Counted from the first letter of the stretch, positions 2,962 through 40,346 are shown. The stretch: DNA of 64,000 nucleotides from Malacoraja senta (GCA_038087875.1 CM075988.1:7194001-7258000); one strand, 5' to 3'. Made by a program: numbers and translations. Notes: a model not told the origin generated them from the letters alone.

Positions 2962-4194
2962 GTCAGAGATCACAGTAATTAGTAATTATCAATCGATGAA
3001 TAAAGATGAAACAAAAGGCTAACTTCTTGCAAATCTTTCTGATCTAATGTAATTTTCCAGTTTTGGCTCTGTGCACTCAAATTCTTTCTTTACATTGAAA
3101 TAGTAACTGCAGATGCTGATTTACAAAAAAAAAGACAAAGTGACGGAGTAACAACGTCACAGACAGATCTCTGGAGAATACGAATAGGTGACATTTTGGG
3201 TTGGGACATTTTGGGTTCAGTCTGAAGGAGGGTCCTGACCCGAAATGTCACCTATCCCTGTTCTCCTGGAATGCTGAGTTACTCCAGCACTTTGTGCCTT
3301 TTTTTTGGTCTTATTTAAGGAAGGATGTTAATGTGTTGGGAAAGATTAACAATATGTTTAGTAAACTAATACCTGGAATGGGTGGGTTATCTAATAAGAA
3401 AATGTTTGATGTGCTAGGCTTGAATTAGCCAGGATGACAAGCAGAATAGAGGTACAAATAATGTTATAGAATGTTATTTTTATTAATTACTAGCATAAAA
3501 GTAGGGATGTTGTGTTTTAGTTATCTTGGGTAATGGTGAGACCTCTGCTGGAACAATGTAAACAGTGGATAGACACAAAAAGCTGGAGTAACTCAGTGGG
3601 ACAGGCAGCATCTCTGGAGAGAAGGAATGGGTGACGTTTCGGATCGAGACTCTTTTTCAGAAGTTCCTTCCTAAACAATGTAAACAGTATTGGTCTTATT
3701 TAAGATATCGAAACAAAGAACTGCAGAGATGCTGCTTTTCATAGTGCCGGATTAACGCAGTTGCAAGCAGCACATCTCTCTAGAACATGGATAGGTAATG
3801 TATCGGCTTGGGATCCTTCTTCAGTCAGAAGGGGTTCCCGACCTGAAACATCACCTATCTATGTTCTCCAGAGATGCTGCCTGACCCACTCACTGAGTTA
3901 CATAGCGTCCTTTTTTCATTCTTTATAGAATCTTTATCATTCAATCCTTTTCTATGCATCTGGATTTTATTTCATGACTTTTTCATTACTTACCCAATAC
4001 ACATTCACTGTTGTCTTTTAATCTAAATTTGTTTTCTGCATAATCCCATGCTTTATTGTTTGTGACACTGAACAATAAAACATATATTGAGATAGTTCAA
4101 CATACTGCTGTTCTAGATTAAATCTAAGTTTGGTTTAATGAAATCTTGTCTTTATTTACTTTTTAACTCCCTGACCGTTCTTTCTTCCTTAAAG

Positions 4195-4308
4195 GGAATT
4201 ATTACACTTATTCTAGCGACTGACATGGCTCGACATGGAGAGATACTGGACAAGTTCAAGCCAAAGGTTGATACTTTTGATTTCTCGAATGAAGAACATA
4301 AAATTAGT
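4195..4308 (+). CDS. PDE9A: PDE9 coding exon ([38 protein letters not shown])
   Basis: LILATDM motif; pyrimidine tract plus AAAG acceptor; GTAAGT donor at 4309; 114 nt, phase 0. Confidence 0.94.
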
Positions 4309-4696
4309 GTAAGTAAAATAAACAAACTTCAGAGCAATTATGGACTTTTTAGTTTGTAAATTGAGAGTTATTGGCATAGAATTGTCTTCCTTTTTACTAC
4401 TGCTATAAATCAGCTACAATTTAAAATGCTACAAAAATGTCAAACTTCAATTGCGACATTCTCAGAATAATATAAAAGCACGTGTCATTATCAGCAAACA
4501 TTTCATTGATCTGCTGCAAGACCTCATAGTATTAAGCGAGGATTGATGGTGCTTAAAACTTTGGTGCCTCGAATCTACAAAATTGTGTTTTAAAGTGAGC
4601 TGAAAGTTGAGGGAGAAGACTGTTGAACTCAAAGTTGTGACAATGCAGAAATGTAAATATTGACCTGTACAAAATGTACATTTCTTCGTTCCGCAG

Positions 4697-4801
4697 CTGA
4701 AAATGCTCCTTATTAAATGCTGCGATATTTCCAATGAAGTGCGGCCAACAGAGGTGGCAGACCCTTGGGTGGACTGCTTGCTTGAAGAGTACTTCACACA
4801 G
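4697..4801 (+). CDS. PDE9A: PDE9 coding exon ([35 protein letters not shown])
   Basis: KCCDISNE carries the metal-binding Asp; EEYF is PDE9-typical; ttccgcag acceptor, GTAAAT donor; 105 nt. Not in the ORF track. Confidence 0.95.
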
Positions 4802-5274
4802 GTAAATGACATTTAGTTGCATCATCAAGGCACGTTATGGTGTGGGTCAAGTATAAAGCCCATCATCACAGTCACAGGGCAATGATGAGAAGTATCCAGT
4901 TGGGTTGTGGGTCCCTGGAATGCTCTGCCAGGGGTGGCAATGCCAGGATAGAATATTGCCATTTAAGAGGTTTTTAGATAGATGCATGGATTATGCAGGG
5001 ATGGAGAGATCTGGATTACATGCAGGCAGTAGAGATTTGTTTAACTTGGCATCATGTTTGGCATAGACATTATGGGCCGAAGGGCTCATTCCTGTGCTGT
5101 AGTATGTTCTACATTCTATCTCACTGAACTTCCTCCTTCTCCTAGTTGCCTCTTGTTGTAATGTCTGCCTGCCTTTCAGCCTCTGTTTTGGTTTTTTACT
5201 ACCTCATCTAGCATATTGCTCCTTACACTTATCATGCTTTGCTTTACCTAAAAAATAGTTTCTAAATGTATCTG

Positions 5275-29905: not shown

Positions 29906-32254
29906 TAAAGATGCTTCCTGACTTGCTTACTGCTTCCAGTATATCCTGCCTTAATATTGCTTTCATGCTAACTTGTCTGTGTTGTGATTTATACTTCATA
30001 TGAACCTTTTCCTACTGCATTTCATCTTACTTTATCAGTATAACCTTCTGCTTTCTCCCTTGTGTTTATTTAATTATCCTTTATATCATGTAATATCTTG
30101 TATAATACAATGTTCCCAAAGCATATCACGTCCAATAATTTACTTGATGGTACCTCACTGTGGCAGCCAATTTGCTTTAATTAACCAATGTTGTAACTGT
30201 AGCAACCCTTCCTTAAAAGTAGCTCTTACATTAGGTTGATCACTAGCAGTTCTGAGTGTTTCAAACAGATTGTAACCTCAGCTCTAACAACATGCATTAC
30301 TGACAAAGAAGAGATTAGTAATTACATAATGCTTTCACATCACAACTGCAGTCACAGTGATACTTTCGAAATACGCTCACTGTTGTAATGAAAAGAATCA
30401 AAGGAGCAAATGGGGAAACATTATCCTACAGGAGGTTATGGCGATGCTAATCAGGAGACTGGAAAAAATGCGATAAACTCAAAAATCAAATAAATAACTT
30501 TCATGGGAATGGAGGTGGAGAACAAAGCAAACTGGTTTGGGGAGAAGAAAGATCAAAGGTAGGGGGGGGGGAGCATGTTTGGGAGCAGTTCATGATGGAG
30601 GATAAGGTTACAAATACTGAGGCAACGTTGAACGAAATTATTTTAGAGTGAGGTAAATGAGGGGTGTCGAGTAAAAGTTGATAACATTGCTCCAAAACAA
30701 ACAGAACCTCCTTTCAGCACATAATATTCCATGAGTTGCTGTGTTAAACAATCTGAGATACTGCCTTAAGGCCATACAGAAGCAGTGGCATTTTTAATGA
30801 GAGGTGATTCCCATAATGATACAATAAATCAGAACAAAAACTGTGTCTGTGAAAACTTCACAGCAGTACAAATGTGATCCCTGCCCTCTTAGTGGCGTAT
30901 AAAATATCTAACATACCCAATTAATGAAAACAGGAATTTTGAACGCAACTCAGAGAGTGGGGACTTGGGGCTTATCACTCCACAGCTAAATTCGGTGCTC
31001 AGCAGATTGTGGTTTTTTAATATATCTTGCAGCTAGTCACTGCTATACCTTAGCAAAAGGACACCATGGTTTCCAAGGTTTCTTGAATTAATTGTTTCTT
31101 CGTTTAGTAAACTTCTGCATCCTTGCATGATAACGTACAATATCCATGCCCTTTAGCTGAAGTTGATGGAAATTATGTCATTACATTTTGGTCTTTTACC
31201 CGGATGGTGGTCCTATTCAACTTCGCAGGGGCAAAAATGATTAATGAGTTGGGATAATAAGCCTGCAAAAGGCAGAACTGAATAGGTATGTTTTGAGAAA
31301 GCACTTAAAAGTTGGGATTAATTATTTGGAGGGAGCGACAGACATAACAGAAGACCAACAGAGGTTAGGTCAAGATATCGAAGGTTCTACAACCAATTCA
31401 AGAATGGAGAGAATGGGCCAATACTGTAGATGCTGGAAATTCTCAACAAGTCTGCCGTTACCTATAAAGAGAAAAAGAGAGGTAATGTTGTAGACTGATG
31501 TTATTACTGGAACTGGAGTGAATGCATTGGAAGATAAAACTCAAACAATGATGGGCAAAAGAGCTGGGGCTGTTGGTGGCATGATAGGTGGAGACTGTAC
31601 AACTCCTCCCCCTTCTGTCATGGGGTAGACTGACTCCCCTGCCCGCCCCTCCCCAATCATTGCACATCCCCAATCCTGGACTTTCCACTCGTCACTTTAA
31701 TTTCAAGTTTCATGTATCTTGTTGTGTTTTATGACCAATTTCCCTCCTGGGATAAATAAAGTTCTATTGTATCGTATCATATATATCAAAAAAGGATTTT
31801 GAAATTGAAGCACTGAGAATAAGCAAATCAGTCTCACTCTATGGGCCACGAAAATAACAAGCATCAGATGTTTTGCACGTACTGCTTAGCTCCAGAATCC
31901 CTGTGGAATACTTCACTGTGTCTGATCTGTCTTTTACAATACCTTCCCCCAAAATAGGGATGGAATCGTTTTACGATTGGCTGTGAAGGATGCATATTTT
32001 TTCATAGTTAAAGAAAGAGGAAAGGATCTGGAATTCCCCCCCAAAAGTGAATCCTTTGAGGGAAATGGTTGCAGGAAACATGTAGAGCTTTATCTTGATT
32101 AAGTGCAAGCCAAACTGGTTTATGGGATAGTCAGATGCTGCAGCAAAAGCAACAAGAGGTGGGCATGGGGAAGGAATCATAACGAGTCATTAAACTCTGC
32201 CAATTGATGTAAAGGGAGAGAACAATGAATAGCTCATGGGATTCAAGAGGGAAC

Positions 32255-34670
32255 CAATGTTCTCTTGATTCAGGATCAGTTCCTGTGGATTGGAGGGTAG
32301 CTAATATTATCCAACTTTTTAAGAAAGGCGGGAGAGAGAAAGCAGGGAATTATAGACCAGTTAGCCTGACATCGGTGGTGGGGAAGATGCTGGAGGCAAT
32401 AATAAAAGATGAAATAGCGGCACATTTGGATACCAGTAACAGGATCGGTCCGGGTCAGCATGGATTTACGAAGGGGAAATCATGCTTGACTAATTTTCTG
32501 GAATGTTTTCTAGGATGTAACTAGGAAAATGGACAAGGGAGAGCCAGTGGATGCAGTGTACCTGGACTTTCGTAAAGCATTTGATAAGGTCCCACATTGG
32601 AGATTACTGGGAAAAATTAGAGCACGTGGTATTGGGGGTAGGTTATTGACATGGAGAGAGAACTGGTTGGCAGACAGGAAACAAAGGGTAGGGATTAACG
32701 GGTCCTTTTCAGAATGGCAGGCAGTGACTAGTGGGGTACCGCAAGGATCGGTGCTGGGACCGCAGCTGTTTACAATCTTAGGCCCCCTTAGGCTGACCAT
32801 GGGTGTCTCCAGGGTGCTATTCCCTATATGGAGGATGCCTGTGCGTGACTATGTTTAACGTGGGGAGACTGGTGCACAGACAGCCACTCCATGGTCCTTG
32901 ACAGATCTGGGTCAGGATCCAGTGGCATGGAGTCCAAGACGACCGGTGACCTTTTTCTGCTGCAGCCTTCATCCGCCTTCCCAGCCGTTGTGATGCTCCA
33001 CTAAGATCAGCCATCGTCCTCCGCCTGTTCCACCGTTGAGGTCTTGATGGATTGCTCTGTCAGAGACCTCCCCCTCGACCTTACCGCCATGGGTGGCCCT
33101 ACCAGGAGCATAGCTCCAGACGGCATCACTCTCAGGATCTCATGTCCACATAAGCTTCTCCACCACGACAAGGTGACAATGCATGGATAAGTTATTTACA
33201 ATATACATCAATGATTTAGATGAAGGGATTCAAAGTAACATTAGCAAATTTGCAGATGACACAAAGCTGGGTGTCAGTGTGAACTGTGAGGAGGATGCTA
33301 TGAGGATGCAGGGTGACTTGAACAGGTTGGGTGAGTGGGCGGATGCATGGCAGATGCAGTTTAATGTGGATAAATGTGAGGTTATCCACTTTGGTGGCAA
33401 AAACAGGATGGCAGGTTATTATGATCTGAATGGTGTCAGGTTGGGAAAAGGGTAAGTACAAAGAGATCTGGGGGGGTCCATGTTCATCACTCGCTGAAAG
33501 TATGCATGCAGGTACAGCAGACAGTGAAGAAAACTAATGGCATGTTGGCCTTCATAACAAGAGGAGCAAAGAGGAGCAAAGGGCCCTAGTGAGACCACAC
33601 CTGGAGTATTGTGTGCAGTTTTGGTCTCCAAATTTGAGGAAGGACATTCTTGCTATTGAGGGAGTGCAGCGTAGGTTCACAAGTTTAATTCCCGGGATGG
33701 CGGAACTGTCATATGTTGATAGAATGGCGCGGCTAAGCTTGTATACTCTGGAATTTAAAAGGATGAGAGGATATCTTATTGAAACATATAAGATTAATAA
33801 GGGATTGGACACGCTGGAGGCAGGAAACATGTTCCCGACGTTGGGGGAGTCCAGAACCAGGGGCCACAGTTTAAGAATAAGGGATAGACCATTTAGAACG
33901 GAGACGAGGAAAAACGTTTTCACCCAGAGAGTTGTGAATCTGTGGAATTCTCTGCCTCAGAAGAATAGAGAGAGTACAGAGGAGATTTACTAGAATGTTG
34001 CCTGGGTTTCAGCAACTAAGTTACAGAGAAAGGTTGAACAAGTTAGGTCTTTATTCTTTGGAGCGCAGAAGGTTAAGAGGGGACTTGATAGAGGTCTTTA
34101 AAATTATGAGCGGGTTAGACAGAGTGGACGTGGATAAGCTTTTCCCATTGAGAGTAGGGAAGATTCAAACAAGGGGACATGACTTGACAATTAAGGGACA
34201 GAAGTTTAGGGGGAACATTAGGGGGAACTTCTTTACTCAGAGAGTGGTAGCTGTGTGGAATGAGCTTCCAGTGGAAGTGGTGGAGGCAGGTTCGATGTTA
34301 TCCTTTAAAAATAGATTGGATGGGTATATGGACGGGAAAGGAATGGAGGGTTATGGTCTGAGTGCAGGTAGATGGGACTAGGAGGAAGTATTTATTTTTA
34401 ATTTATAAAAAGAAAAAAAAAAATTTAATGTTCGGCACGGACTTGAAGGGCCGAGATGGCCTGTTTCCGTGCTGTTATGGTTATATGGTTATGTAGTTAT
34501 ATAGAAGGCAGTGGAGGCCAATTCTCTGGATGCTTTCAAGAGAGAGTTAGATAAAGCTCTTAAAGATAACGGAGTCAGGGGATATGGTGAGAAGACAGGA
34601 ACGGGGTACTGATTATGGATGATCAGCCATGATCACATTGAATGGCGGTGCTGGCTCAAAGGGCCAAACT
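32255..34670 (+). mobile_element. Decayed CR1 RT region with two nested insertions
   Basis: YRPVSLTS, YLDFRKAFD, FADD, RPHLEYC; nested inserts at 32777-33194 and a second CR1-subfamily 3' piece at ~33964-34503. Confidence 0.9.
32777..33194. mobile_element. Short non-coding retroposon insertion resembling an RTE-clade 5'UTR derivative
   Basis: Flanked by tttacaat at 32769-32776 and 33195-33202, splitting the CR1 motif QLFTI. The family call rests on recalled similarity only. Confidence 0.55.
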
Positions 34671-36393
34671 CCTGCCTAATCCATTGACTAATATGAGGAG
34701 TATCAGAAGAGAGGAGAAAACAGGTATGTAGACATTTTTCTTCACCTTGTCAAGTCCCTGAAATGCTCAGTGTGCTGGAGTTGTAATGTTCGGATCACAA
34801 TCTTACAGCTCAATTCTCTTTTCCAGGCTTCTTTATTGGAACAAATTTCTCTCATCTTTGACAATCGGTTATACCTAGACTGTATGGTTCCCTGGATATT
34901 GAGAAGATATTGAATGGACAAACTTTGTGTCACCTGCAGTTCCAAGTGCCACAAGGGGTGGGGTAATTGGAAACAGAACACTGGGGCAGGGAAAACGCTG
35001 TGAGAGGAGCATATGGTACGATATGTCTGGTGGTGGTGTCTTTTATCGAGGGGGTTTAGAAATGATAGCACAAAATACATGTAAATTAATATTTAGCTAA
35101 TTCAATATGTCAAAACAATATAAAACCAAAAATTCTAAAACCTAAAAGTGTTGATTTGCCAATCACTTCTATACAGCTATATATATACATATAAAATGAT
35201 TCAGACCTACCTGGAACCAGCACAAAAACTGGGATTTAACCAGATTCCTAGCTAAATTGGCAGTAGCATCATCTAATCTGCTGCCTGTACTATAGTCTGC
35301 TCCTGTGTTCCTCTGATCATCTTGTCATATCATCCACAGGACAGCATGATTTACCACTGATTTCCCAGCTCGCAGGCCGGGACACCTGCCCTCGGCCTGT
35401 GCCCAGTTAAGCCTGTGCAAGCACGCACGTCCCCATTCAATTGATAAGGAAATATTGAAGCAAGGTAATTAGCTATGTTTTTCTTATTTACAATTTAGCT
35501 CTAATGATTTTAATTGACACCCCTACGTTGCAATCTTTTATGTGAAGATACAAAGCAAATTTAACTTTTTAACAAATATTATATTTTTTAAGTGCCTCTA
35601 AATGTTTGTGAATGCCAATTTTAGAGTCATGGAGTTATACAACTTGGTAACTAGTCCTTCAGTCAAACTCATCTGTGCCGAACAAGCTGCTTGTTTAAGC
35701 TAGTACTATTTGCTGCCATTGGGCTATCCAATATACCTGTCCAAATGTCCTTTAAATGTTATAAATGTACATGCAGGGCTGCCAACATTGGGTGAGAGTT
35801 GGGAGTGAGAAATTGCGAGAGACCAAGCCCGAGGGAGCGTAGCGACCGGGGGGGGGGGGGGGGGGAGGAGGGTGTCCCCCTCCCATTGGTACGGAACATT
35901 TGCATTTTCAGCTTGAAATTGTGCAATATGGTTCATACTGTAGTGAGTCTTTTAACTTACACTTGAATACAATATATATGCTTTAAATTGGATTGGAGCG
36001 TTTTTGGATGGGAGGGGGGAGGCTGTGCGATCACTGATCACTGGCCTTGGGGGTACCCGGTGAGGGAGTGGAGCAACCGAGTGGGGAGAGGGTGTGGAAG
36101 AAGGGTGTCATCCCTCCCAGGGTAGGAACTTTTTGAAATTTGATGTATTAAAATCATGTTTTAGTGCACTGTGGAAGTATGATTTCAATGTTTTTTGTAT
36201 GAAGTATTTTTAAGACGTAACTTTATAAGAGGTAACTTTATCCACACAAAGGGTGATGGGTGTATGCAACAAGCTGCCAGAGGAGGTAGTTGAGGCAGGG
36301 ACCATCCCAACATTTAAGAAAAAGTTAGACTGATACATGGATAGGACAGGTTTGGAGGTATGGACCAAAAGCAGGTAGCGTAGCTGGGACATG

Positions 36394-37070
36394 TCAAGTC
36401 AAGTTTATTTGTCACATACACATATGAGATGTGCAGTGAAATGAAAAGTGGCAATGCTCGCGGACTTTGTGCAAATAACAAACAAACAAACAAACAAACT
36501 ACAAACAGAATGGAACAGAATCACATATTCTTTTACATATTAAATATTGTGGGCGGAAGGAAAAAGGGGGAAAAAAACAGCAATTAAAAAAAACACAGTA
36601 GAATGGTACAGTAAAGTTAGTCCCTGGTGAGATAGGAGTTTACAGTCCTAATGGCCTCTGGGAAGAAACTCCTTCTCAACTTCTCCGTTTTCACAGCATG
36701 GCAACGGAGGCGTTTGCCTGACCGGAGCAGCTGGAACAGTCCGTTGCTGGGGTGGAAGGGGTCTCCCATGATCTTATTGGCTCTGGAGTTGCACTTCCTG
36801 ATGTATAATTCCTGCAGGGGGGCGAGTGAAGTTCCCATAGTGCGTTCGGCCGAACGCACTACTCTCTGCAGAGCCTTCTTGTCCTGGGCAGAGCAATTTC
36901 CAAACCAGATTGCAATATTTACCGGACAAGATGCTTTCCACAGCCGCTGAGTAGAAGCACTGGAGGACCCTCGGAGACACTCTGAATTTCCTCAATTGCC
37001 TGAGGTGGTAAAGGCGCTGCCTTGCCTTACTCACGAGTGCTGCAGCGTGTGATGTCCATGTCATATCCAT
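36394..37070 (-). mobile_element. Rex1-type LINE 3' fragment nested in a CR1 3' fragment
   Basis: KARQRLYHLRQLRKF, YSAAVESIL, DPFHPSNGLFQLL, RRSFFPEAIR. Confidence 0.85.
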
Positions 37071-37481
37071 GTTGGTGGGTGTGGGCAAGTTGTGCCGAAG
37101 GGCCTGTTTTCACATTGTATCACTCTATGACTACATTATCCCTCCACCATGCATGAATGCTTCAAAATCAAGTGATCGAGTTTTATTGCCATATACTCAA
37201 GCATAGAAACATAGAAAATAGGTGCAGGAATAGGCCATTGGCCCTTCGAGCCAGCACTGCTATTCATCTAAAACCAGTACCTCTCTGCGTGAAGAAAGTT
37301 TGTCCTCATCTCAGTCCTAACTGGCCCCCCCTTTATTCTTAAACTGTGACCCATGGTTCTGAACGCCCCCAACATCGGGAACATTTTTCCTGCAGTTACA
37401 GTAAGTGAAAATCTAGCAGGCAAGCACCCCCATTTGAAGTCCACTATCTTCCACCGTTTCTACCCAGTGCTTGGTACTTAC

Positions 37482-37627
37482 TTCCAGCAGCCACTGGTTG
37501 TCCTCCAGGATGCACCGAGCCGCAGCCTGATCCATGCAGGTCACCTGGGCGAATTCGGCACAGAGACTTTCACGGCAGCGGCGCAACGCTTCGACGGCCC
37601 GGGACTCTTGCACTGAGGCTGCTCCAT
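37482..37627 (-). pseudogene. TDP2: Captured TDP2-like exon 1 (UBA-like domain), frameshifted
   Basis: RESLCAEFAQVTCMDQAAARCILEDNQWLLE followed by a GTAAGT donor (37481-37476); GCCATGG start at 37627; resembles human TDP2 RRLLCVEFASVASCDAAVAQCFLAENDWEME as recalled. Confidence 0.72.
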
Positions 37628-37871
37628 GGCCGGAGTTGCAGTGAGCGACTCGCCAGCCCGGCAAACCCTCGCCAGCCCCGCTCCCCGTCCGCATCTGTCC
37701 CCGCCGCTGCTTCTGCTTCCAACACCCGCGGCCCATGCAGTTGATATGAGTTTTGAAATTTTCGTTGATCACAGAATTTCTCACAACAGAGCGTAAGAAA
37801 TTTGTGATCAGCGTGAGAATTTGGTGAAATGCGTGATTCTCACGCTCAATGCATGGGAGTTGGCAGCCCTG

Positions 37872-38840
37872 CCTCTCTATCAAACTATCCCCCTCTCCCC
37901 CTCTCTCTCTCTCTCCCCCTCTCTCTCTCTCCCTCTCCCTCTCTCTCTCCCCCTCTCTCTCCTCTCTCGGTCCCCCTCTCTCTTTCCTCTCTCTCTCCCA
38001 CTATCTCCCTCCCCTCTCTCTCCACCTCTCTTTCTCTCCCCTCTCTCTCTCTCTCCCTCCCACCTCACTCCTCTCTCTCCCCCTCTCTTCCGCTCTCTCC
38101 CCCTCTATCTCTCCCTTCCCCCTCTTTCTCCTCTCTCCCTCTGTCTCTCCTCTCACCCCCTCTCTCCCCTCTCCCCCTCTCACTCTCCCCCTTCCATCTC
38201 TCTTCTCTCTCCCCCCTCTCTCTCCCCCCTCTCTCTCCTCTCTCTCCCCCTCTCTCTCCCTCCTCTCTCCCTCTCCCCCTCTGTCTCCTCTCTCTCTCCC
38301 CCCTTTCCCCTAACTCTCTCTCCCCTCTCTTTCCCCTAACTCTCTCTCCCCCTCTCTCTCCTCTCTCTCCCCCTCGCTTCCCCCTCTCTCCCCCTCTCTC
38401 TTTCTCCCTCCCTCTCTATCTCCCCCTCTCTCTCCCTCTCCACACACTCTCTCCTCTCTCTCTCTCTCTTCCCCCCCTCTCTCATCTCTCTCCTCTCTCT
38501 CCCTCTCTATCCCCCATTTCTCCCTCCCACCTCACTCTCCCCCTTGCTCTCTCCCCTCTCTCTTTCTCCTCTGTCTCTATCTCCTCTTTCTCTTTGCCCC
38601 CCCATCTCTCTCTCTTTCCCCCTCTCTCTTTTACCACCCTCTCCCATTCTCTCCTACCCTCTCCACCCCCTCTCTTCCCTCTCACCCCTCTCTCTTCCCC
38701 CCACTCTCCCCCCTCTCTCTCCCCCCCTCTCCCTCTTCTCTCTCTCCATTCACACCCCCTCTGTCTCTCCCCTCTCTCTCCTCTCACCCCCCTCTCACTC
38801 CCCCCTGTCTTCTTCCCCCCTCTCTCTCTCCACCTCCCTT
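37872..38840 (+). repeat. ~1 kb polypyrimidine (CT/CCCT) low-complexity tract
   Basis: Almost entirely C and T; the source of the spurious Leu/Ser/Pro and Arg/Glu/Gly ORFs. Confidence 0.95.
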
Positions 38841-38854
38841 TGAGAGTCTGTCCC

Positions 38855-38928
38855 TTCGGCACAGACTCTCACGGCAGCGGCGCAACGCTTCCGACGCCTC
38901 CGACGGCCCAGGACTTGCACTGCTCCAT
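38855..38928 (-). pseudogene. TDP2: Second, truncated copy of the TDP2-like exon 1 start
   Basis: Aligns to 37554-37627 (SPGPSEASEALRRCRESLC), then breaks into the CT tract. Confidence 0.65.
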
Positions 38929-40346
38929 GGCCGGAACTGCAGCGAGCCACTCGCCAACTCCGCAAACACTCGCCAGCCCCGCAAATACTCGCCAGCCCCG
39001 CAAACACTCGCAGCCCAGCAAACACTCGCCAGTCCCGGTTCCCCGGATCAGTTCCCGCCGCTGGTTCTGCTCCCATCCCTTCCTCAGCCCCTGCTCTCCA
39101 ACAACCGCGGACCATGCAGTTTATCCGAGTTTTGAAATTTTCGTTGATCACAGAATTTCTCACCACAGAGCGCGAGAAATTTCTGATCAGCGTGAGGGCG
39201 TGAGAGTTTGCTTGAGGGCGTGATTCTCACGCTCAAAGCGTGAGAGTTGGCAGTCCTGGTACGTGGCTCTACCACTTTGTTAACAGCACATTTCATATAC
39301 CCACCACTCTCTCTCTTAAAAACTTGCCCTCAGTTCCCTTTAAGTCTTTTCCTTCTCACCATAAACCAATGTCTGCTAGTTTTACACTTCCATACCCTGA
39401 AAAAAGACTTCCAGTATCTACGTTTTATGACCTCATAATTTTATAATCCTCTGACGTCACCTCTCAACCTCATTAGCTCCTTAGGCCTCTCAGCTGGCCT
39501 ACTCATAATTCAAGCGCTGAAGTCAGGGAACATCCTTGTAACTCTTTTCTGCACCCTCTCTAACTTAATCACATCCTTCCTATAGCATGACAACCAGAAC
39601 GGCACACAATAGGCCAAGTGAGGCCTAACCAATGTTTTGTACAAGTGTAACATGACATCCCAACTGCTGTAGCCAAAGAAGGTAGCAATGACATATGCCA
39701 TCATCACCATCCTGTCTACCTGTGTTGCTACTTTCATGGAACTATGTACTTGTATCCCTACATCTCTGTTCAGCAACACTCCCCAGGGCCATGCCATTCG
39801 TCCTGCCCTGGTTTAACTTCCCAAAATGTATCATTTTACACTTAAGTTAAATTCCATCTGCCATTCCTCTGCCCACTTTCCCAACTATTCAATACCCCAA
39901 TATAATCTTGGAAAATCTTCATTGTCCACTATGTCATCGATTTGGTGTCATCTGGAAACACGTTAATTGCCACCATTGTTGTACAAATCATTAATATGGA
40001 TAACCAACAGGAGACCAAGCATACCTTGTAGCACACCTCTGGTCACAGGGCTTCAATGCAACTCTCTACTACCACCCCCTGCCTCCTGCCACCGTTAACA
40101 TTGTATCCAGTCGGCTAGCTCACCTTGGGTTCTAATCCTCTAACTCTGACCGTAATGCGGGACCTAGTCAAAATCCTGCCAAAGTATAAGTAGACAACGC
40201 CTTGTCTTTGTCAATATTGTTGGTCACCTTTTAAATAAAATCATGAGACATGATTTCCTATGCTTTGTTGACTATCCCCAATCAATCTTTGCCTTTTCAA
40301 ATGCAAATTGAACCCTGTGTCTCAGAAATGCCCTCCATCAGATTTA

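Follow-up and report, generated by a model that had tools for sequence, protein, structure and literature searches.

A high-copy Pack-type transposon carrying the 5' end of TDP2 in the skate Malacoraja senta

A TIR-bounded element inserted into an older repeat

We analysed a 64,000-nucleotide stretch of the genome of the skate Malacoraja senta (CM075988.1:7194001-7258000, hereafter the window) and found that positions 35774-39258 are very probably a decayed copy of a high-copy, non-autonomous Pack-type transposon with terminal inverted repeats (TIRs), which carries the 5' end of the host DNA-repair gene TDP2. The hallmarks of Pack-TIR elements were all found: TIRs, target-site duplications (TSDs) that differ between copies, a host-gene fragment acquired at the DNA level, a parental locus not flanked by the transposon, and no transposase of its own. 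A first-pass annotation of the window had described a TIR-bounded element of ~3.5 kb, and this description was borne out by the 13-bp TIRs and by TSDs of 6-7 bp in 13/13 complete copies.

The left TIR (CAGGGCTGCCAAC, 13 bp, positions 35774-35786, plus strand), located by TIR comparison and a 34-mer count, is paired with two right ends. The inner right TIR (37860-37872) is the exact complement of the left TIR, with 14 perfect nucleotides when the adjacent base is counted, and the outer one (GTTGGCAGTCCTG, 39246-39258) matches the left TIR at 12/13 positions. The TIR pair of the family ends is CAGGGCTGCCAAC / GTTGGCAGCCCTG, and the same TIRs are present at other loci in the genome. The TSDs adjoin the left TIR and the outer, not the inner, right end, indicating that the outer right end is the one actually used in transposition. 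In all 13 copies that yielded both ends, a direct TSD was present (6 bp in five copies and 7 bp in eight), and the 13 sequences were mutually different and unrelated, as were the target sites.

In the window copy, the left TSD gtacatg (35767-35773) matches the right TSD gtacgtg (39259-39265). Paralogous, uninterrupted copies of the host repeat showed the two flanks as contiguous sequence with a 7-bp overlap, gtac[a/g]tg, which confirms the overlap at this site. The transposon at 35774-39258 was inserted into, and split, this older repeat. The clean split reported by the first-pass annotation was thus confirmed. Judged by a sequence motif, the split repeat is presumably the tail of a CR1-type long interspersed nuclear element (LINE).

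The open reading frames (ORFs) of at least 100 amino acids in 35774-39258 were only the read-through of the exon, those of a nested LINE fragment and translations of a CT-rich tract. No transposase belonging to the element was found in this ORF scan or in a Pfam run on part of the small ORFs.

The cargo is the 5' end of TDP2, taken up as genomic DNA

Direct reading of the minus strand gave the series that had been annotated: a GC-rich leader, GCCATGG (ATG at 37627-37625), a peptide ...RESLCAEFAQVTCMDQAAARCILEDNQWLLE ending at 37482, and a GTAAGT splice donor at 37481-37476. The exon copy, with its UBA-like domain, occupies 37482-37627 (minus strand). GCCATGG and the UBA peptide are both present, as proposed, but in the window copy a frameshift lies between them; the ATG opens a different frame from that of the peptide, one that is closed by a stop after 32 codons. 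The attribution of the peptide to TDP2 held up, since its best matches were indeed TDP2 proteins. It matched the UBA chain of human TDP2 (6q00_B, a solved structure) with an E value of 1.6e-4, aligned to ...LCVEFASVASCDAAVAQCFLAENDWEME, and TDP2 of the skate Leucoraja erinacea with 95% identity over 70% of the query (E 1.1e-12). The identity with TDP2 of Rhinoraja longicauda was 81%, and a weak match to the C. elegans TDP2 enzyme was also obtained. The Pfam UBA_4 profile gave 19 bits for the exon peptide, under the cut-off of 21.8.

The first-pass annotation had named the real gene as an alternative to be tested. A tblastn search of the 64-kb window with two skate TDP2 proteins revealed no TDP2 exon other than exon 1 and its truncated copy, all remaining matches having E values above 0.9. 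The real TDP2 gene lies on contig C19, on the minus strand and with its exons in order (exon 1 at 4712337-4712516, exon 2 at 4701845-4701940 and the last exon at 4674572-4674850), while the window lies on C12. Exon 1 of the gene is intact, with 60 codons followed by GTAGGT; the exon of the transposon family is 24 bp shorter.

Structural comparison of a reference copy of the element (L003) with the TDP2 locus (L041) showed that positions 446-1433 of the former are collinear with 3827-5102 of the latter at 81-85% identity, in blocks of 454 bp at 85% and 570 bp at 81%; L003 446-881 corresponds to L041 3827-4258 in a single piece (85%). The outer right end contributes an additional 35 bp of upstream sequence (L041 5104-5138). 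The shared DNA, ~1.3 kb of the TDP2 locus, thus starts ~145 bp upstream of the ATG and runs through exon 1 and the donor into intron 1, of which it covers ~1 kb; the captured intron holds a LINE 3' tail and a repeat resembling a short interspersed nuclear element (SINE), both of which also occur elsewhere in the TDP2 locus. Neither transposon arm (~445 bp on the left, ~120-135 bp on the right) has a match within 20 kb of the gene (L041 and L042), and the similarity between gene and transposon stops exactly where the arms start.

The collinearity over leader, exon, donor and intron means that genomic DNA was captured; the cargo is neither a retrocopy nor the gene itself. DNA-level capture had been proposed from the retained donor, and the intron places it on firmer ground. 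The intron-like DNA had been put at ~80 nucleotides. This estimate did not hold: ~1 kb of TDP2 intron 1 was captured, which in the window copy is modified by a nested LINE fragment and a 163-bp deletion. The direction of transfer was from gene to transposon, since conservation of the UBA exon extends to human TDP2.

Two side observations concern the gene. The annotated Rhinoraja longicauda TDP2 protein (P0004) has 36 residues ahead of the MEQPQCK start, and this N-terminal extension aligns to the captured leader (window 37595-37678, 76% over 29 amino acids); part of this leader may be coding in some species or gene models. In addition, second matches to the last two TDP2 exons (amino acids 205-270 and 268-360, ~80-85% identity, one with a TAA) occur on the same strand ~65-70 kb from the gene (C19:4603402-4611049, L032 and L033), and may represent a partial tandem duplicate or pseudogene of TDP2.

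Copy number and composite structure of the family

Other TIR-bounded copies, which the earlier description called for, were found in large numbers, each with its own TSD. With up to 3 mismatches allowed, the genome contains 529+481 = 1,010 occurrences of a 34-mer that covers the donor and the exon end, and 1,647, 1.6x as many, of a 34-mer from the left end (starting at 35774); the reversed controls gave 0 in both cases. A 473-bp query extending from the intron-like DNA to the inner TIR returned 2,896 first-look candidates in the 1.94-Gb genome, and the 41 matches listed for it were the window itself, 39 other near-full-length copies at 90-94% identity and one partial match. With L. erinacea TDP2 as the query, 107/113 scored matches were to exon 1 only and lay outside C19. 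The copies sampled for the comparisons described here were the best-scoring ones.

The inner right end noted in the first-pass annotation is present, and it is not an accident of this locus: in an exact-pattern search of 30 loci, 25/25 inner ends were followed by the CT-rich tract. The composite form, in which a CT-rich tract is followed by a second, truncated exon, leader and right end, is the family norm, and the reference loci showed doubled coverage over the right end. The spacing between the two right TIRs varies by copy from 211 to ~1,430 bp. A ~14-bp tandem duplication of captured sequence marks the left capture junction in the 18 loci that yielded it. At the junction of the CT tract with the exon, an inverted copy of the adjacent exon bases (19 loci) forms a fold-back palindrome, which was present, variably mutated, in all 19 loci that contained the anchor.

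Simpler relatives were also recovered. L079 has a single right end, a long leader, an extra 1.7-kb non-coding segment and its own 6-bp TSD, and L077 is a 1.23-kb member devoid of any TDP2 DNA with its own 7-bp TSD. Five left-end loci lacking a perfect exon match nearby proved to be non-coding relatives, long or short, and no ORF longer than 98 amino acids was found in the extra 1.7 kb of the longer relatives.

Some individual loci deviated from these forms. In an otherwise ordinary composite copy (L072:4430-5065), the truncated exon and leader ahead of the outer right arm are exchanged for unrelated GC-rich DNA of ~640 bp, to which neither the window nor the other sampled loci gave a match; this DNA could be a second capture or an insertion. 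L075 and L076 (C1:7527100-7531100 and C1:7536500-7540500) contain two left ends separated by 9.4 kb that are identical over 1,434 bp; an N run is present in one of the two, and the identity reflects a local duplication or an assembly artefact. At L074:2760-2963, just downstream of a LINE reverse-transcriptase ORF, a CT-rich tract leads directly into GTGTGAGAGTTGGCAACCCTG, a right-end-like terminus with neither the TDP2 leader nor the 120-bp arm. This locus may be one more relative, with the CT tract placed directly against the TIR.

In sequencing data of the coded organisms A-H, 0.32-0.63 of the sampled words of window positions 35000-40000 were found; this stretch consists mostly of repeats, and the values are no measure of species range. 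Contigs over the exon bins at a likeness of at least 90% were obtained from runs X15 and X19 (organisms G and H) and none from X17.

Evolution and expression of the captured exon

We read the exon from its ATG in 29 sampled copies. The frame was open through the donor in 13, reached a stop before the donor in 14, and had no ATG by pattern in the remaining 2; 13 of the 14 interrupted copies, which form the subfamily of the window copy, share a single 1-bp frameshift. Differences from the majority sequence amounted to 3.9/2.7/2.5% at codon positions 1/2/3, or 1.7/1.9/2.1% when CpG sites were removed. Because the codon positions differ alike, there is no sign of purifying selection on the exon copies. 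CpG sites differed at 8.6%, compared to 1.7% at other sites, and this ~5-fold CpG decay would fit germline methylation. The sampled copies differed pairwise by 4.6% (1.3-7.3%) and by ~2% from their subfamily majority, values that are lower bounds for a best-scoring sample.

Transcription was assessed in a polyA RNA run of a related coded organism, of which ~6% was read at a likeness of at least 90%. The depth was 8-17 reads over the exon bins and 10-33 over the left transposon arm. In these data the leader showed no cluster of transcription starts, and the rows listed, outside which lie 996 further loose-end rows, included no joint or loose end at 37481/37482. The even codon positions, the frameshifts in about half of the sampled copies, the CpG decay and the background level of RNA indicate that the cargo looks like a passive passenger, and it most likely has no role beyond being repeat DNA. 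Each copy nonetheless retains an ATG, a good donor and a leader resembling a CpG island, with which individual insertions could serve as a portable first exon. The first-pass annotation had suggested that the element spreads an active promoter-proximal first exon; with no excess of exon RNA and no donor joint listed, this suggestion is so far unsupported.

It is nevertheless conceivable, although improbable, that the family acts as a dispersed module of promoter, first exon and donor, that is, as an exon trap resembling the bat element HelibatN3. Transcripts would then start in the TDP2 leader and be spliced from GTAAGT to host exons, producing chimeric mRNAs that are UBA-tagged or altered at their 5' end. 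The leader is GC-rich and resembles a CpG island, with an observed/expected CpG ratio of 0.83 in the gene and 0.79 in the family majority, and the cargo has an ATG and a consensus-like donor, the latter kept in the 1,010 copies counted above with up to 3 mismatches. The open frame in 13/29 copies points the same way, as does the analogous Helitron cargo, which does behave in this manner (PMC4778049). Against this stand the RNA data, the CpG decay, which suggests that the copies are methylated and silenced, and the codon positions, which evolve alike; moreover, the captured upstream DNA extends only ~145 bp from the ATG and may or may not include the promoter.

We consider it slightly less probable still that the family is a thousand-copy, recently active Pack element of an undescribed TIR group, characterised by CA..TG ends, TSDs of 6-7 bp and the lack of a recognisable hAT or P partner, some insertions of which are used as alternative first exons. 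It would then distribute a CpG-island leader, a UBA-coding first exon and a strong donor over skate genomes; lineage-specific chimeric or UBA-tagged proteins would be expected, and the bat HelibatN3 system would have its first counterpart of the cut-and-paste type.

Superfamily affiliation, origin and competing explanations

We compared the ends of the element with those of the known superfamilies. The TSD of hAT elements is 8 bp, and a TSD of this length was found in 0/13 copies, by which a typical hAT is excluded; the 5'-CAGGG end presumably fits the hAT YARNG rule. Mutator-type ends comprise long TIRs and 9-10-bp TSDs, so that a Mutator-like Pack-MULE was rejected on a TIR of only 13 bp and TSDs of 6-7 bp. 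Helitrons have no TIRs and no TSD, with rolling-circle ends, and capture by a Helitron was rejected because TIRs and TSDs are present; the resemblance to HelibatN3 is in the cargo only. Dada elements have 6-7-bp TSDs and no TIRs and insert into specific small-RNA genes (PMC3706591). Their TSD length fits, but the element has clear TIRs and 13 unrelated target sites, and Dada was rejected on these features. IS3EU/GingerRoot elements have 6-bp TSDs and TA..TA (or TG..CA) termini (PMC10045372). They were rejected as well, the termini being CA..TG here and the TSD 7 bp in 8/13 copies.

The P-superfamily members Galileo and 1360 give 7-bp TSDs. The P superfamily, with TSDs of 7-8 bp, is the nearest fit by length, the skate family having eight TSDs of 7 bp, five of 6 bp and none of 8 bp. 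We also observed that P-like transposase sequences are abundant and apparently young in this genome (300 first-look PF21787 candidates, of which 150 were scored with E values from 4e-38 to 2e-32), with open frames of up to 790 amino acids; one example (L074:3935-6211, plus strand) contains four P-transposase Pfam domains. High-copy P-like elements are uncommon in vertebrates. The PF12596 profile had no match in the genome, and its controls were silent too, hence this search is uninformative.

Several points weigh against the interpretation as a single-capture Pack-TIR family with passive cargo. The TSD length of 6-7 bp fits no TIR superfamily cleanly. Neither the TIR (with up to 2 substitutions) nor similarity to the arms was present at the best 20 of 1,648 PF05699 hAT-domain loci, and the one P-like copy examined, in L074, had no arm similarity and no clear TIR. 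The autonomous partner was not found in these searches, so that mobilisation in trans is inferred. The gene and the transposon majority differ by 13.5-14.6%, compared to ~2% between copies and their subfamily majority, which means that the capture took place long before the burst or in another lineage. The divergence values are lower bounds because the best-scoring copies were sampled, and the absence of spliced transcripts is weak evidence, coming from ~6% of a run of another organism.

A reversed transfer, in which the UBA-like exon was native to the transposon and skate TDP2 recruited a nearby copy as its exon 1, is very improbable. The copies are closer than the species' own gene to L. erinacea TDP2 exon 1 at SPGP, AQVT and LLE, and repeat-derived first exons can enter gene models. 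However, human TDP2 has this N-terminal UBA segment as well, the C. elegans enzyme shows it more weakly, and no transposon arm or TIR lies within 20 kb at the C19 locus. Furthermore, the shared DNA includes an intron with older repeats, and the similarity breaks off exactly at the arms.

Equally slight is the chance that a transposase gene of the element itself begins with this exon, which would encode a UBA-like N-terminus, and that the copies are internally deleted derivatives of such an autonomous element. This would accord with the failure of our searches to identify an autonomous partner and with the 1.6x excess of left ends over exon 34-mers, which indicates that other family members exist. 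Collinearity with ~1 kb of TDP2 intron 1 and the leader is, on the other hand, unexpected for a transposase gene. The right subterminal 16-mer occurs without the usual leader junction at 15 places; of the 3 that we inspected, one was a chance match and two were ordinary copies carrying insertions. Only non-coding DNA was found in the five extra left-end loci. That the window exon belongs to the real TDP2 gene, a segmental duplicate or a retrocopy, as its exon-1 coding similarity to TDP2 could suggest, is scarcely credible given the lack of any other TDP2 exon in the 64 kb, the 1,000 or more dispersed copies with TIRs and individual TSDs, and the retained intron and donor.

For a Pack-TIR family with captured TDP2 DNA, the following origin would be consistent with the junctions. 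The TDP2 fragment may stem from a single acquisition through template switching in the course of repair or replication, as suggested by the short tandem duplication at the left junction, possible microhomology at the right junction (GATAYGAG) and the fold-back palindrome; we infer that these junctions are traces of template switching and snap-back synthesis. A cargo-free member (like L077) would have given rise to a simple Pack form (like L079) and this, in turn, to the composite form with its duplicated right end and CT-rich tract. Amplification to 1,000 or more copies would have been driven by a transposase acting in trans.

Anatomy of the window copy

Window positions 35774-36394 and 37068-37872 correspond to the reference copy L003. 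The transposon-proper left arm (35774-36218, plus strand, ~445 bp) contains internal repeat units of ~130 bp and a G run; it corresponds to positions 1-445 of L003 with 94.7% identity and has no match to the TDP2 locus L041. The distal part of the captured intron 1, comprising the 3' tail of the intronic LINE, follows at 36219-36394 (minus strand). A later, nested LINE fragment at 36395-37067 (minus strand) is private to the window copy: it is absent from L003, and reads and contigs of other runs jump over 36358-37068. It contains minus-strand ORFs, the tail of which, judged by a motif, is presumably a LINE-like C-terminus. The proximal part of intron 1 (37068-37481, minus strand) holds the SINE-like repeat, from which 163 bp are deleted near 37266/37281, and ends with the donor. 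At 37424, ~18 bp of the intron-like part are missing in the window copy compared to the other copies and the gene (the GCAGGATGCTTTC... region), and RNA reads of another organism carry 8 extra bases at this position.

Beyond the exon copy, the GC-rich captured leader and upstream DNA extend over 37628-37750 (minus strand), with the homology to the gene stopping between ~37734 and 37750. The inner copy of the transposon-proper right arm (37751-37872, plus strand), which has GTGAGA-type subterminal motifs and terminates in the inner TIR, has no match in the TDP2 locus. The low-complexity CT-rich tract that separates the two right ends occupies 37873-38841, and the fold-back palindrome (GAGAGTCTGT ... 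ACAGACTCTC) at the junction of this tract with the truncated exon spans 38842-38870. The second exon 1 copy (38855-38928, minus strand) is truncated at its 3' end, having an ATG at 38928 and stopping within the LCAEF codons. It is followed by a second, longer copy of the leader (38929-39126, minus strand) with extra CAAACACTCGCCAGCC repeats, which retains ~35 bp of gene sequence absent from the inner leader copy, and by the outer copy of the right arm (39127-39258, plus strand), which ends in the TSD-flanked outer TIR.

LINE reverse-transcriptase and C-terminal ORF fragments were also observed around the element, at 32213-34381 (plus strand) and 39510-39812 (minus strand). The latter runs on into the repeat split by the transposon, and a motif suggests that these fragments are CR1 as well.

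Significance and comparison with known systems

The dispersed copies provide a natural experiment on whether host genes ever recruit scattered first exons, and the family-wide capture junctions, together with the simple, composite and cargo-free relatives, bear on the origin of Pack elements. They also call for caution in the annotation of skate genomes, where 'TDP2-like' first exons or small ORFs may be predicted from copies. A protein-database search with the read-through ORF gave matches only to three small predicted proteins; copies of this kind are already the source of two ENA proteins and one Logan predicted protein.

In plants, the capture of gene fragments by cut-and-paste transposons is amply documented. 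The one broad survey of animal Pack-TIRs, that of Tan et al. (2021), describes captures as almost always single-copy, with 4/370 multicopy and an example in three copies (PMC8277862). The rarity in vertebrates asserted by the first-pass annotation agrees with these counts (PMC8277862). In a full-text search of a single literature collection, we found no published description of a TDP2-carrying transposon from skates. The skate element is well supported as a new, exceptionally high-copy Pack-TIR, which is very unusual for a vertebrate cut-and-paste transposon.

The survey offers several points of comparison. Pack-hAT-N8_XT of the western clawed frog, which carries the CAPSL 5' untranslated region, is likewise a TIR element with an internal host-gene fragment (PMC8277862). 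It differs in having three copies, as opposed to at least 1,010 cargo copies and a composite double right end in the skate. In animal Pack-TIRs generally, as here, the parental locus lies elsewhere without the transposon and distinct TSDs record repeated transposition, and an origin by template switching has been proposed for them (PMC8277862). Ssk-FB4 of Drosophila melanogaster is similarly a multicopy Pack-TIR derived from a single host gene, thought to have arisen by replication-fork template switching followed by transposition (PMC8277862). Ssk-FB4 exists in four copies, and there is evidence that its product is translated and under positive selection (PMC8277862), whereas the skate family has a thousand or more copies that evolve neutrally. 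Plant Pack-MULEs (in rice and others) share with the skate element the amplification of intron-containing gene fragments by non-autonomous TIR elements (PMC8277862). Their families are many and mostly low-copy, in contrast to one cargo at very high copy in the skate, and their Mutator-type ends are absent from the skate element.

HelibatN3 of vespertilionid bats, which carries the promoter, first coding bases and splice donor of NUBPL and was amplified to thousands of copies, resembles the skate family most in its cargo: an upstream region, a start codon, first-exon coding sequence and a splice donor (PMC4778049). In both cases the 5' end of a housekeeping-type gene was taken up at the DNA level, reached high amplification in a vertebrate and forms a potential exon trap (PMC4778049). 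The HelibatN3 cargo has six codons, and its promoter and exon-trap activities were demonstrated by experiment (PMC4778049), while the skate cargo comprises a whole UBA exon of 50-60 codons with ~1 kb of intron. The carrier of HelibatN3 is a rolling-circle Helitron with no TIRs or TSD, and that of the skate family is a TIR element with 6-7-bp TSDs. HelibatN3/NUBPL is the nearest functional analogue of the skate element, almost its twin in cargo design, with a cut-and-paste carrier in the skate.

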